From NCBI RefSeq assembly GCF_006345805.1, contig NW_021835404.1, positions 1 through 40,364 of the forward strand: a stretch of 40,364 nt of DNA, written 5' to 3'. Every line of letters begins with the position of its first letter. Within the stretch, counting starts at the first letter, position 1. The stretch comes from Octopus sinensis (Eukaryota). Positions 7,397 to 40,362 of the stretch are shown piece by piece. Under the pieces are notes generated by a model. It did no database searches. It saw only the letters and a list, made by a program, of their open reading frames with translations, and was not told the origin of the DNA. Both the position numbers and the translations under genes were made by a program.

Positions 7397-9394
7397 TCAA
7401 ATAACTTGATAAACTTCTGCGTGATGTATTTCATTCTTCAAATAAGTTTATTGTCTGGATCATTTTATCTAAAATGGTTATTGTTAACCTACGATCTGCA
7501 TTTATCATAGACAATAATTTAGGTATCATAGACGTCATCAATATCAAAGTAATCTTTGTGGATGCTGATAAGTGCAACTCTTCTAGACTTATTATATTGT
7601 TGCAAGCAAAGAAAAAGGTTACGATTAGAAACAGTTTTACAATGGATTTACCAATCTCATTTCTCAATGGAAAACGCTGGTTAACAATTCTCTTAAACAA
7701 AGTGGTGTTTATGAATTCTTCCCCATATTTTGACTGAACTAAATTTGGACGAAGAATTTTGGTGAGCTTTATGGATTCAAGCAGAATGAAGTCATATAAA
7801 CTCTGAAATAACTTAATGGTAAAGTTAAAATCAGATAAACAATTGGGATTCCATAATAAACGAGGCACAGAAATAATTCACAGACAGAAAATACAGCAAA
7901 TAAAATTGTAATGGAAACAAAGAGCCAAAGTGTAATGAATCACCAGAAAATATTTCTCCTGTAGTAATATAACCAAATTTTCTTTATACGGTTAATCCAA
8001 GTATAAATTATTGAATACCAGAAATTTGGGTTTAAAGCAGTAGAAACATTAGCTTCCATTACTGCATAGAGTAGATCATAATCCTGTTGTGTAGAAACAT
8101 CTAAATTGCCATACTTCTCTAATAATCTAATATTTTGAATGAGAAACGTGAAAGTGGATCTTTGATGTAACGTATTATAAGCGATAGTCTCACTTAAACG
8201 ACTGGGAAGAACGAAGAGGATAAAGTTGAAAGATACGTAACAGATTAACCATACAAAGGGACCACCAAAAAAGCCATCAGTATTCTCATAACTTTCTGGG
8301 ATTCCTAATATCAAGGCGCGATGTCCCAATGGTATACCATCTTGGAAAAGTATTGCTATTGTTTCATATAAAAAGAAGTAATGCATCAAAAGATCCAGGA
8401 AAATTACTGAAAGAGAAAATAGAATACAAAGGAATCTTCTCAGCCCCGAGGCTAAGAGAGTGGAATGGTGAAAGCAAAACAACCAAGACAGAAAATGAGA
8501 GAATGTGTAAATATTATGTTTTCCATTGATCCACTCGGATTCGTGTGGCAATGTGTTTTTAATTGTAAATAAGAATTCATCGTGAGCAAACAGTGGCAGA
8601 TTGAGTTGACGGGAATGTGAAGGTAATTTAGCTTTTGATACAAAACTAATAATTAATGGGGAAAATAGCCACAAAACCCCTCCGAAAATATCTAAATAAT
8701 TTTAAAAGTTATCATTTTGAATGATTTTTCCTGAACAAATGGATTTGGGGCGATAAAGATTACTTTCATTTTTATAGAGTTTACAGCAATAGTTCTTTAT
8801 AATTTCTCTATTTATGCCAATTCTTCTGTAAGTTTCAAATGAGAGAGGGCTGTTCTTCTTCATGTCTTGAGACAAATTTATATAAAAACACATGTATCCA
8901 GATTCTCCCATTTGCAATTTATCGATAAATAAAATTCTTTTCAATTCCTTGAAAATCAAATATATTAAATCGTGTCTCTGAATATTTTGTTTTCCACAAG
9001 TGATATTGATATCAATCCTTTGTTTAGCAACGTAGACGTCCAACATATTAAAAGTGTGCATTGAAAAATCATAGGAGAAAGTTCTATATAGAGTTAAAGC
9101 GCCTGATTTATCTGGAATCCACGTAAAACTCCTCGCATTTGCAAAATAATCCAATGCCACAGGATTAAGAAGTTCATCAAGTGTCTTGTTTGATAAATGG
9201 ACTTCAAAATTGAAAACCTCTTTTTCTAATTTCACTAAACGAGATAAAATCTCACCGATATTGGGAGGGATTTTAACTTCACAATCATTGCCGAGTTCCT
9301 TCGCATCGATGTTTAGTGATATCAGTGTGATAATAAGAATGATTGAAAGAATAAGAGAACTGGTTGCTGTTGTTGTCGTCTGCACGGCAGCCAT
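7397..9394 (-). pseudogene. Disrupted gene (single coding exon) for an uncharacterised multi-pass membrane protein (copy 1)
   Basis: ORFs 8702-9394 and 7940-8674 are in one frame, separated by TAA at 8702-8704 (..QNDNF*NYLDIFGGVLWLFSPL). After TGA at 7940-7942 the frame continues FITLWLFVSITILFAVFSVCELFLCLVYYGIPIVYLILTLPLSYFR. A frameshifting deletion near 7795 joins it to YDFILLESIKL...; this C-terminus aligns with the paralogue at 39826-40362. A further 1-nt shift near 7431 hides the homologous end EIHHAEVYQVI* (stop 7397-7399). Confidence 0.85.
8702..9394 (-). CDS. Intact 230-aa ORF: signal peptide plus ectodomain of copy 1 (possibly secreted if expressed)
   Basis: Hydrophobic N-terminus SSLILSIILIITLISLNIDA, six Cys and four N-X-S/T sequons (NKT, NIT, NLS, NES). 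The stop falls just before the first TM segment. Confidence 0.5.
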   Translation of the reverse strand: MAAVQTTTTATSSLILSIILIITLISLNIDAKELGNDCEVKIPPNIGEILSRLVKLEKEVFNFEVHLSNKTLDELLNPVALDYFANARSFTWIPDKSGALTLYRTFSYDFSMHTFNMLDVYVAKQRIDINITCGKQNIQRHDLIYLIFKELKRILFIDKLQMGESGYMCFYINLSQDMKKNSPLSFETYRRIGINREIIKNYCCKLYKNESNLYRPKSICSGKIIQNDNF

Positions 9395-9404
9395 ATTTGG
9401 TTAT

Positions 9405-9440
9405 CTGTAAAAATATGAAAAAATAGAGCATATTAAGTAA
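9405..9440 (-). promoter_or_regulatory. Probable 3' splice acceptor of a 5'-UTR intron, 10 nt upstream of the ATG
   Basis: The minus strand has branch-like CTTAAT, then a T-rich pyrimidine tract ending ...CATATTTTTACAG|ATAACCAAAT-ATG. Confidence 0.65.
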
Positions 9441-9774
9441 TGAAGATTCAACTCCGTTTCTTTATTTCATAGACATTTGCAATGTTACGAAATAATCATA
9501 AGTGTTGTGGTCAATGTATCTGAGAAATCAATGCATTTTTCTGTTGCCGAGTACCTCTTTTATGGTTAAACATATCCCCGTTTCAAGGTCAATATTTTCT
9601 ATTCAACGGTTGCAGGAGATTTTCTATTGCATTCGATGCTACCTAGTTCAAGGTATTAAAATTAGCATCATAACTGAATCAAGTTATATTTGAACTGAAA
9701 ATACGGAGGTTTTAATGTAGATGGTAAAGATATATGAAATGAGTATGAATTTCATTTCAAATAGATTCAAAATG

Positions 9775-37864: not shown

Positions 37865-39630
37865 TTCAGTAGTCTTATTTTTATAGCGTGCTTTCACTTC
37901 ACTACCGAGCGCAGCTCTGTGTGCCTTGGGTATGTGCTGTGATTTGTTGTGATGCTCTGATGGTTATTGTATGGAAAGTGTTCTGCGTAGGAGGTGTGCA
38001 GTGCCTAGTAGTGCAATTTCTGTATGTTATATGTGTTTGTAAGTCCTGGTGTTTTTGTTATGTATTTGTCTGAATATTTTCTTATCATGCCTAATGCACC
38101 TACTATGATAGGAATTGTTTCTGTTTTCAGATTCCACATTCTAGTTACCTCTATTTCCAGGTCTTTGTATTTTGAGAGTTTCTCCATTTCTTTTAGAGAC
38201 ACGTTGTCATCTGCCGTATTGATACATCAATTAGAAAGCATTGTTTTTCTTCATGATCTCTGACAACTATATCTGGTCTGTTGGCCTTAATTTCTCTATC
38301 CGTGTGTATCGGCATATCCCAGAGTATGGTTGCTTTCACGTTTTCTGTGACCTTTTCTGGTGTGTGCCTATACCATCTTTTTTCTGTTGTTATTCCATAA
38401 TGTTGGCATAGCTTCCAATGTATGTAGGTTCCAACTCTGTCATGTCTGTGAATATATTCCTTCTTAGCCAGGACTGGGCAGCCAGAGATAATATGATTTA
38501 TTGTTTCTTGTCCATCTCCACATATTCTGCAGTTACTTGTAATATTTCTTTTCATTACATGTTTTTGGTAATTTCTGGTGGGGAGGCTTTGGTCTTGTGC
38601 TGCAATTAAAAATCCCTCTGTTTCTGCTTTGAGTCTGAGCTTCTCAACCATTGCTGGGATTTTTCTTTGTCTATTTCTTTTGCGCTTAGTTTAGTCCAGT
38701 ATTTACCATGAAGGGGCTTTTCTTGCCATCGTTTTATCATGGTTCGTTGCTGTTCTATTTTTAGTTTGGATTTCATTTGTTTTATAGCTTTTGTTGTTTC
38801 TTCATCTTCTTCTTCTTCTTCTTGTTTATTAGGTGGTATGATTTCTTGTTTGTATTTGTCAGCTTCCTTAAATACTGAGAACAGTTTTTTTGTTTTGCTC
38901 GTGTTTTGCCGCTATCTGGATCAGTTTTCCTTCCTTCTGAAGTAGATATTTTTGCAGTCCTATGGTGGTTATTTTATAGTAGTTTTCCAGCTGTATAAGG
39001 CCTCTACCACCTTCTATACGTTGTATATATAGTCTTTCTATGTCAGATTTTGGGTGATGCATCCTAGATCCTGTCATTATTTTTCTTGTTTTCCTATCTA
39101 TTTTGGTCAGTTCATTTCGTGTCCAGTTAAGGATATTGTAGCTGTAACTATAACTGGGACAGCTAAAGTGTTGATACCTATTATCTTGTTTTTAGCATTG
39201 AGCTCTGTGTTTAGTATTGATCTAACTCGTCTATAATATTCTTTTTTTATTTTCTCTTTCATTTGTGTGTGTTGTGTCTTATCTAGTTCATGGATTCCTA
39301 AGTATTTGTAAGTTTGGCTTTGGTCTAATTCTTTTATTTCATTGGTTTTATCTAGTGTGATGTTGTTACTCTTAACTAGTTTTCCGCTTTTCAGGGTTAC
39401 TTTGGCGCATTTTTCTAATCCAAATTTCATATCTATTTTTTTGGTAAATCCATGAACTGTCTTTAATAGTGTTTCCAGCTGTTTGTCATTTGGCCTTTCT
39501 TCTTTCTGTGGCTGTCTTCAGTTAGGCTTTATTAATCATTAGTTGATCTTTACAGCCATATGAGCCTTTGCGGCATCCTTTCTGCTCTTCTGGGAACAGT
39601 TTGTTTTCGTGCAGGTGCTTGTCCAGTGCT
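37865..39630 (-). mobile_element. 5'-truncated, internally deleted R4/Dong element (fourth lineage)
   Basis: EQKGCRKGSYGCKDQL joined at ~39490 directly to NDKQLETLL..MKFGLEKC (RT core missing), then MHHPK, CRICG..HIISGC, RHD and RPD..IDVSI; flanked by (TAA)n. Confidence 0.92.
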
Positions 39631-39765
39631 TATTATTATTATTATTATTATTATTATTATTATTATTATTATTATTATTATTATTATTATTATTATTATT
39701 ATTATTATTATAATTATTTTATTATTATTATCATCATCATCATCATCATCATCATTATTATATTA
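39630..39765. repeat. (TAT)n/(CAT)n microsatellite
   Basis: Directly visible; similar tracts at 34620-34890, 35443-35787, 36338-36697 and 37815-37865. Confidence 0.95.
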
Positions 39766-39825
39766 TACACTGTAGTTAATAATCCATAAAAGACCCTGAA
39801 GTACCTTTAATCTTATTAAAGAATA

Positions 39826-40362
39826 TCAAATAACTGGATTAACGTCTCCGGCATATGCATTAATTCTTTCGATAATTTTATCTAACATGGTTATTGTTAA
39901 CCTACGATTTGTATTTATTATAGACAACAATTTAGGTATCATAGACGTCATCAATATCAAAGTAATCCTTGTGAACGCTGATAAGTTCAAGTCTTCTCGA
40001 CTTATTATATTGTTGCAAGCAAAGAAAAAAGATACGATTAGAAACAGTTTTATAATGGATTTACCAATCTCGTATCTCAATGGAAAATGATTGTTAACAA
40101 TTGTCTTGAACAGCTTAGCGTTTATGAATTCCTCTCCATAGCTTGACTGAACCAAACTTGGACAAACAGTTTTGGTGAGTTTTATAGACTGAACTATTAT
40201 TGAGTTATACTGCTTTATGATGGCGTTCACAATTGCAACGGTATACACAAAAAACATGGCAACACACCATACGTCACTGACATTATCAGGTTCAGTAAGA
40301 ATTGTAGCAGCTATCGTAAATATGAAATTGCATGTGATTTGAAAACTTGTAAGAAATATATA
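39826..40362 (-). CDS. 3' end of uncharacterised multi-pass membrane protein gene (copy 2), continuing beyond the window
   Basis: The frame is open from the window edge: YIFLTSFQITCNFIFTIAATILTEPDNVSDVWCVAMFFVYTVAIVNAII...KLFLIVSFFFACNNII...ITLILMTSMIPKLLSII...NPVI*. Clear paralogue of 7397-7795, with many silent differences. Confidence 0.85.
   Translation of the reverse strand, partial: YIFLTSFQITCNFIFTIAATILTEPDNVSDVWCVAMFFVYTVAIVNAIIKQYNSIIVQSIKLTKTVCPSLVQSSYGEEFINAKLFKTIVNNHFPLRYEIGKSIIKLFLIVSFFFACNNIISREDLNLSAFTRITLILMTSMIPKLLSIINTNRRLTITMLDKIIERINAYAGDVNPVI

Follow-up and report, generated by a model that had tools for sequence, protein, structure and literature searches.

The window analyzed here is the whole of a 40,364-nucleotide unplaced contig (NW_021835404.1, G000:C11875) of the 2.72-Gb genome of Octopus sinensis, and it contains two copies of a gene from what appears to be an undescribed lophotrochozoan membrane-protein family, in which a predicted ectodomain, possibly of a new fold, precedes a bundle of membrane helices (Table 1). 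Both copies lie on the minus strand with their 3′ ends 32.4 kb apart, in agreement with an earlier reading of the DNA letters alone (the sequence-only reading), which described two co-oriented paralogues about 32 kb apart; the conserved blocks that it quoted are found in copy 1 and copy 2 alike.

Table 1. Features of the window, family loci and leader exons elsewhere in the genome, and segments of the predicted protein.
Feature	Position	Strand	Remarks
Copy 1 coding exon	7431..9394	minus	ATG 9392-9394, normal stop 7431-7433; pseudogene of the family
Copy 1 signal peptide and six-Cys ectodomain frame	8705..9394	minus	Open until the first stop
Copy 1 in-frame TAA	8702-8704	minus	Codon 231, directly before the first membrane helix
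Copy 1 in-frame TGA	7940-7942	minus	Codon 485
Copy 1 deletion	between 7797 and 7796	minus	259 bp, frameshifting, relative to L031; about residues 534-620, region of transmembrane helices TM6-TM8
Candidate 5′ untranslated region (5′-UTR) intron of copy 1	9405..18324	minus	About 8.9 kb; GT donor 18324, TACAG acceptor ending at 9405
Leader exon B, assigned to copy 1 by position	18325..18463	minus	At least 139 nt; 5′ end not fixed
Diverged leader B copy	14024..14205	minus	77% identical, without GT donor
Second leader B copy	2220..2415	minus	Intact donor, pointing to the left contig end
Copy 2	39826..40364	minus	Last 178 codons and stop, truncated at contig end; more distant paralogue
Non-LTR retroelement with reverse transcriptase	21542-25244	plus	Stops and frameshifts
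Non-LTR retroelement with reverse transcriptase	29745-33313	minus	Stops and frameshifts
Non-LTR retroelement with reverse transcriptase	36896-39614	minus	Stops and frameshifts
GC-rich stretch	26973-27896	plus	Frames resembling, by eye, decayed long terminal repeat (LTR) retrotransposon gag/protease
Family loci, main array	C1:204.92-205.35 Mb		23 loci
Family loci	C1:208.47-208.61 Mb		5 loci
Family loci	C1:213.37-213.39 Mb		2 loci
Family loci	C1:41.43-41.45 Mb		2 loci
Family loci	C5:50.25-50.34 Mb		5 loci
Leader C copy	G000:C1:205127286		Coding exon at 205128101; near-identical to the next
Leader C copy	G000:C1:205156397		Coding exon at 205163068
Model, signal helix	residues 5-26
Model, alpha/beta ectodomain	residues 38-225		Six Cys; ectodomain taken as residues 35-229 (195 aa)
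Model, helix after ectodomain	residues 230-254
Model, loop	residues 261-285		Low confidence
Model, further helices	residues 313-351, 379-395, 482-515, 517-539, 543-591, 593-634, 663-690, 697-717, 723-739
Model, small hairpin	residues 639-649

Copy 1 is a pseudogene, unable to encode the protein, because it carries two in-frame stops and a frameshifting deletion by comparison with its nearest intact paralogue, L031 (G000:C1:205041967-205044189, 740 aa), whose protein is identical to P0001, the “uncharacterized protein LOC118765918” of O. sinensis in NCBI. Its ectodomain contains six cysteines (residues 38, 133, 169, 203, 204 and 220) and four N-glycan sequons (69, 130, 173 and 209), exactly the numbers that had been read from the sequence. 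L001 matches copy 1 exactly at the deletion site. At position 7941, the overlying contigs from 4 of 4 sequencing runs have a sense codon, unlike the TGA of the window, these being contigs that drop rare variants; all runs used in this study were taken as RNA by guess, with none recorded as RNA, and the transcript-like contigs come from four study codes. A second unplaced contig, C10461, is 99.97% identical to the window across 3690 bases around copy 1, with one gap and zero mismatches, and it therefore shares the lesions of copy 1; the same DNA may have been assembled redundantly in it, and it does not confirm these lesions independently. The two contigs are near-duplicates, offset by 57-80 bases at three landmarks. 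Copy 2, open over its 178 codons, is 66% identical to P0001 across residues 569-738, and its continuation in C10461 contains many small indels close to the end of that contig.

Intact and broken members in tandem arrays

Genome searches with N-terminal and C-terminal parts of the family gave 56 and 65 matches, respectively, which collapse to 37 chromosomal loci and 18 loci on unplaced contigs (counted from the match tables), well above one or two copies genome-wide. Many of the 18 unplaced loci look redundant, and raw copy counts are inflated because several unplaced contigs repeat chromosome 1 or C5 loci. A full frame of 731-752 aa in one coding exon is present at 18 of the 40 loci that we examined, with a 19th long frame (L047, 880 aa) that stops early, and 21 of the 40 are broken or partial, although assembly errors may account for some of the single frameshifts. 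Of the 23 copies packed into the 560-kb main array, 11 are intact. The arrays, the mixture of intact and broken copies and the absence of a match in the libraries searched together support the proposal of the sequence-only reading that this is a tandem, single-coding-exon, undescribed family with birth-and-death behaviour. A search of the octopus genome with a distant homologue, P0025, returned in a strict first look only loci already known.

Several C5-type paralogues (L047, L050 at G000:C9513 and C5:50.28 Mb, P0016 and P0011) contain an expanding, acidic, Pro/Ser/Gln-rich repeat of about 22 residues, which sits in the loop after the first membrane helix. In one O. vulgaris gene model, P0019, a gelsolin-like protein is fused to an N-terminal family segment; this fusion is probably a prediction merge, and hints at a gelsolin-like gene adjoining one family array.

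Leader exons and splicing

A pyrimidine tract and an ACAG or GCAG acceptor lie 10 nt before the ATG in all 16 of the 16 main-array copies for which the start context was printed. Exactly at this acceptor, transcript-like contigs depart from the genomic sequence and run on into bases found kilobases upstream and bounded by a GT donor, a junction between leader and coding exon that is seen in 4 of 4 runs, confirming the single coding exon preceded by a UTR intron that had been predicted for copy 1. Leader B is joined to L031-type coding exons in runs X2, X3 and X10, while L037/L038-type exons are joined to leader A (runs X1 and X3) and to leader C (run X2). Since these contigs join leaders to coding exons at acceptor and donor sites, intact-type members are transcribed and spliced, and the family therefore has expressed members of the intact type. 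Contig depth cannot rank expression between genes, and the splice evidence carries no tissue information. In runs X1-X3 the intron is left uncovered, an observation given no weight here. None of six gene ids occurs in those supplements of PMC9712504 that can be searched.

Leader B matches the genome at 16 places, each on a contig or in a region that holds family copies; two of these matches, at 18327 and 2222, are on the minus strand of the window. Judging from position, the copy 1 exon would pair with the leader at 18325, and the leader B copy nearest the left contig end suggests either that another unit follows outside the window or that this leader is an orphan.

We also considered one shared leader (trans-)spliced to many alternative coding exons, an idea that arose from the single leader A copy in the 560-kb array and from the RefSeq isoforms of LOC115209402, and rejected it as a general rule: units carry leaders B, C and D in cis. 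In RefSeq, the paralogous proteins P0006 and P0170 are isoforms X2 and X1, respectively, of this one gene, which can be explained by the near-identical leader C copies, through either an annotation merge or real alternative splicing. Leader D (G000:C1:204940846 and 204978150) is joined to a family acceptor in run X2, with a GT donor 7 nt further on, and lies in what is, by eye, retroelement-like sequence.

Predicted protein

The full-length AlphaFold2 model, built with 119 alignment rows, has a mean predicted local distance difference test score (pLDDT) of 85.4 and a predicted template-modelling score of 0.82, and the ectodomain modelled alone has a pLDDT of 87.5. A family-averaged insertion/hydropathy scale gives eight clear membrane segments in addition to the signal peptide, and the model helices permit nine to ten membrane helices, against the “roughly nine hydrophobic segments” of the sequence-only reading. 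The six ectodomain cysteines are conserved at 86-100% over 110 rows and would form three disulfides, a number taken from the cysteine count and not read off the model. The other best-conserved positions are W92, S114, L118, P246, R317, R320, the G377-G378-P379 motif, P397, F458-W459, R469, E506, P517, Y608, Y620, P662 and P711. Among these, the polar residues in or beside the membrane part are E506 and R469 (each 106 of 110 rows), R317 (98) and R320 (95).

The nearly invariant intramembrane Glu, together with several Tyr and Trp residues, would suit a membrane-embedded enzyme or scramblase of unknown chemistry. We consider this very unlikely, as no His/Ser/Asp cluster is present among columns conserved at 60% or more, and neither Foldseek nor the VIA fold search gave a clear match to an enzyme fold. 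A conserved cytosol-side motif (Y620...G-I-P..LF...RP.R) and structured cytosolic segments in the model would, in turn, fit a non-conducting receptor or adhesion/recognition protein that signals via a cytosolic partner on the conserved helix-hairpin at 620-664. This is improbable in our judgement: Pfam, Foldseek and VIA identified no known signalling domain or G-protein-coupling fold, and the ectodomain is not diversifying faster than the remainder of the protein.

Searches against known families and folds

None of 60 members reached any Pfam cut-off (best E 0.017, with single-member matches only), and against PDB sequences the best E was 0.71 for P0001 and 2.4 for the family profile. Foldseek with the full model found nothing at E 0.001 or better among PDB and viral models, the top rows being TRP channels and ABC transporters at E 0.53-0.94 with a TM-score of at most 0.10, and it found nothing with the ectodomain alone either. 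VIA was run over 48,161 PDB representatives, where its typical best Z is 7-8 for models without a Foldseek match. With the full model, the best row was a designed helical bundle (Z 8.1, root-mean-square deviation [rmsd] 4.5, 124 residues aligned), and the best natural protein was SIDT2 (8k10_A, Z 7.6, rmsd 2.4, 75 residues, model 592-723), a range common for helical bundles. The row for 9jr0_B (Z 7.1, rmsd 6.0, 135 aligned) is only a partial alignment to a seven-helix fold, and TRP and ABC rows had Z of at most 6.6 over 60 residues. The ectodomain alone had a best Z of 2.8, to unrelated chains, with no representative at 5 or above and only 47 chains at 2 or above, although a missing VIA match does not prove a new fold. 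ESM Atlas gave no usable match, which shows neither novelty nor absence.

The sequence-only reading had been unable to assign the protein to G-protein-coupled receptors (GPCRs), Cys-loop/chemotactile receptors, ionotropic receptors or a transporter family, and our Pfam and PDB sequence searches lead to the same result. In the 60 members, there was no match to the seven-transmembrane receptor profile of GPCRs, to the STRA6 (retinol-binding protein receptor) profile, to the EMP70 profile of TM9SF/nonaspanins, or to TRP ankyrin or ABC nucleotide-binding domains. Pfam and PDB sequences likewise gave no match to the ligand-binding profile and four helices of Cys-loop/chemotactile receptors, the family having at least eight membrane segments instead, or to the ligand-gated channel and clamshell profiles of ionotropic glutamate and related ionotropic receptors. 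GPCR, Cys-loop, STRA6 and TM9SF chains are not among the fold-search rows listed, an absence that does not exclude them. Nor is a transposon origin indicated, as family frames contain no reverse transcriptase, transposase, integrase or endonuclease domain, with reverse transcriptase matches only in flanking retroelements. Across Pfam, PDB sequences, Foldseek and VIA, no full-length match to a characterised family or a transposon protein was found.

Two O. bimaculoides members (P0005 and P0008) are labelled “Receptor for retinol uptake STRA6” in UniRef, where such labels are machine-made, with no basis given for the label. This label, together with nine to ten helices with variable membrane positions, favours a solute/lipid transporter or STRA6-like uptake receptor, in which the ectodomain would dock a carrier, the helices pass the cargo and paralogues differ in substrate. 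Such a function is quite unlikely, since no Pfam family is reached at cut-off, STRA6 included, the family profile has no PDB sequence match, and birth-and-death arrays with half of the copies broken are unusual for nutrient transporters. The STRA6 label of P0005 and P0008 is backed by neither the profile nor the PDB sequence tests (the labelled P0008 was among the 60 members scanned).

Literature searches identified no paper describing the family, and twelve member ids had no literature match. Large octopus gene clusters named in PMC9068888 include protocadherins, C2H2 fingers, S-crystallins, chemotactile receptors, reflectins and suckerins; its main text has no match for “PARP” or “uncharacterized”.

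Homologues in other lophotrochozoans

Using a profile of 12 close sequences at E ≤ 0.001, and representatives at 50% identity clustering, we identified 160 homologous representatives, 61 of them at 1e-30 and mostly full length. We looked up 30 clusters, 14 with a taxon name and 16 without. Eleven named clusters are from outside Octopus, namely Haliotis, Ostrea, Mytilus, Sinanodonta, Potamilus, Ruditapes, Mya, Mactra, Mercenaria and, twice, the annelid Owenia; each is labelled uncharacterized, hypothetical or unnamed. With bivalves, a gastropod and an annelid among the named clusters, these sequences indicate that the family is old within Lophotrochozoa and is not cephalopod-specific. A FastTree tree of 119 rows groups the Octopus and Argonauta proteins in a single clade (support 1.0) that is separate from several clades with named bivalves; the family is thus the older of the two, and its expansion in octopods is specific to that lineage.

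Divergence among paralogues

We compared 14 distinct intact coding sequences (L031-L044), leaving out identical twins and two intact C5 copies, and measured selection by pooled Nei-Gojobori counts. The ratio of non-synonymous to synonymous rates (dN/dS) is 0.47 over the whole sequence, with 0.42 for the ectodomain and 0.47 for the membrane part, and no region exceeds 0.77; ectodomain-focused positive selection, which we considered, is not seen in these counts. Purifying selection, proposed in the sequence-only reading from the conserved blocks, holds for the intact paralogues. Copy 1 differs from L031 by 20 non-synonymous codon changes (two of them the stops) and 15 synonymous ones. The mean amino-acid difference is highest at 541-620 (0.376, bootstrap 0.32-0.43) and 230-255 (0.357), compared with 0.278 in the ectodomain and about 0.20 in the other helices, and is lowest at 401-480. 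Pairwise identity jumps along the gene, and neighbouring informative sites show greater compatibility than shuffled ones, with a value of 0.186 against a shuffled mean of 0.247 and none of 200 permutations as low. These patterns are as expected for mosaic exchange between paralogues, such as gene conversion would give, and because of these signals the regional contrast may stem from uneven homogenisation.

The macro-PARP neighbourhood

A dense array of exons encoding Macro and PARP-catalytic domains occupies C1:205.37-208.18 Mb, between two of the family arrays (204.92-205.35 and 208.47-208.61 Mb). More Macro/PARP exons are present at C1 40.8-41.4 and 211.1-211.6 Mb, and the pairing with the family recurs at 40.8-41.45 Mb. 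Genome-wide, there are 31 PARP-catalytic and 90 Macro matches, most in these C1 stretches, and these are PARP9/14/15- or DTX3L-like.

Homologues of leader A, an exon of 55 nt, occur all along the macro-PARP array (40 of 292 candidates scored). Leader A itself lies at L071:1501-1558 (G000:C1:205364414), in a stretch that duplicates C1:206.355-206.367 Mb in inverted orientation with about 98% identity over 11.5 kb. Macro exons on its strand lie upstream of it, and it is spliced across 20 kb to L038 (C1:205344499) in runs X1 and X3. Four leader A homologues are open in frame where leader A has a stop codon, and this stop falls 14 nt before the family ATG in the spliced product. Since the spliced leader is a stop-bearing homologue of PARP-array exons, part of a truncated PARP-type gene serves one family member as 5′ UTR, possibly a case of promoter capture or of a two-cistron transcript.

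Immune induction of macro-PARPs is known from vertebrates. The family could accordingly be an innate-immune effector or restriction factor that is induced by viruses or microbes, is co-regulated with its macro-PARP (PARP9/14/15-like) neighbours and acts on membranes or entry without ligand sensing. The enclosure of the macro-PARP array by the two main family arrays, the recurrence of this pairing, the member spliced from a PARP-array-type exon in two runs and the many bivalve members all speak for such an effector. We nevertheless regard it as unlikely, given that most units have their own non-PARP leaders, that the C5 array is not seen beside Macro/PARP exons among the matches listed, and that no region has a dN/dS above 1.

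Remainder of the window

Outside copies 1 and 2, the window consists of simple repeats and decayed retroelements bearing reverse transcriptase. C-terminal CCHC and PD-(D/E)xK-like motifs in the non-LTR elements presumably place them in a restriction-endonuclease-type clade. The element at 21542-25244 has been recently mobile, since it is 97-99% identical to copies within the chromosome 1 array. In the GC-rich stretch, a Pfam scan of the frames gave nothing at cut-off. The left 7.8 kb of the window is 98.8% identical to DNA downstream of L031, other parts best match other units, and nowhere in the main array does colinearity extend over the entire window; by this comparison of sequences, the window is an extra unit or another haplotype.

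Proposed function

The function that we favour, plausible though short of probable, is that of a ligand-sensing receptor which opens a path for ions or small solutes, with a disulfide-held outer domain on a bundle of nine to ten helices. The protein would be located at the cell surface, where the conserved ectodomain would cap the helical membrane bundle, and ligand would bind at the ectodomain and the outer helix ends. Gating would act via the conserved buried Glu506 and the cytosol-side Arg317, Arg320 and Arg469, and paralogue-specific tuning would lie in TM1 and TM6-TM8. A gated path is the simplest output, because no enzyme or adaptor domain was detected and the buried Glu and cytosol-side arginines are conserved. 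The setting would be surveillance of the environment or of microbes, with innate immunity slightly favoured because of the macro-PARP neighbours.

Several observations weigh against a gated receptor. No channel or transporter fold was matched, the best full-length hits being the designed bundle at Z 8.1 and Foldseek rows at E 0.53 or worse. About half of the loci are broken, a proportion that neutral expansion could equally produce. Contrary to the simplest picture of a receptor repertoire, the ectodomain does not change fastest (dN/dS 0.42, compared with 0.47 for the membrane part); the variable helices also have a high synonymous rate (0.47 and 0.62), and their pattern may reflect uneven gene conversion instead of a pocket under selection. 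That PARP genes lie nearby may be chance.

In its widest form, the proposal is that of a new animal class of ligand-gated channels or receptors with an ectodomain fold absent from PDB, serving as a surveillance repertoire in molluscs and annelids and expanded in octopus beside a macro-PARP immune array, with at least one member taking over PARP 5′ exons and regulation; taken as a whole, we hold this to be unlikely. The novelty applies to the protein family and its predicted fold, and the function as a receptor or conduit is our inference. Few large animal membrane-protein families remain without any sequence or structure match, and the present one extends across cephalopods, bivalves, a gastropod and an annelid. 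Its ectodomain is predicted with confidence, the best PDB match to that domain is unusually poor, and in octopus the family behaves like a sensory or immune repertoire. If it does gate ions or sense microbes, a large clade of animals would possess a new class of receptors, which would bear directly on cephalopod sensation and shellfish disease. Cloning and testing the intact members is easy, as each has a single coding exon.

Comparison with known systems

Cys-loop receptors have a beta-sandwich ectodomain and four helices. The octopus chemotactile receptors, which are Cys-loop channels derived from nicotinic acetylcholine receptors, resemble the family in being clustered, intronless and expanded in octopus, with an N-terminal, Cys-bearing ectodomain of similar size, according to PMC11526382 and PMC9068888, and the former also describes tandem, intronless repertoires as common among chemoreceptor families. 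In contrast to these receptors, the family has a predicted alpha/beta ectodomain and nine to ten helices, has members in bivalves, a gastropod and an annelid, and has no Pfam or PDB sequence match.

STRA6 is alike in its length and its approximately nine membrane helices, whereas the family has a folded 195-aa ectodomain after the signal peptide and no match to the STRA6 profile. TM9SF/nonaspanins share a signal peptide, an outer domain of about 200 aa and nine helices; they are, however, few conserved genes rather than birth-and-death arrays, and the family has no Pfam match. SID-1/SIDT proteins, which have beta-rich ectodomains and 11 helices, likewise combine a signal peptide, an ectodomain and many helices and provided the best natural-protein row in VIA, but the aligned part amounts to 75 of 740 residues, SID-1 was not retrieved with the ectodomain, and no Pfam match links the two.

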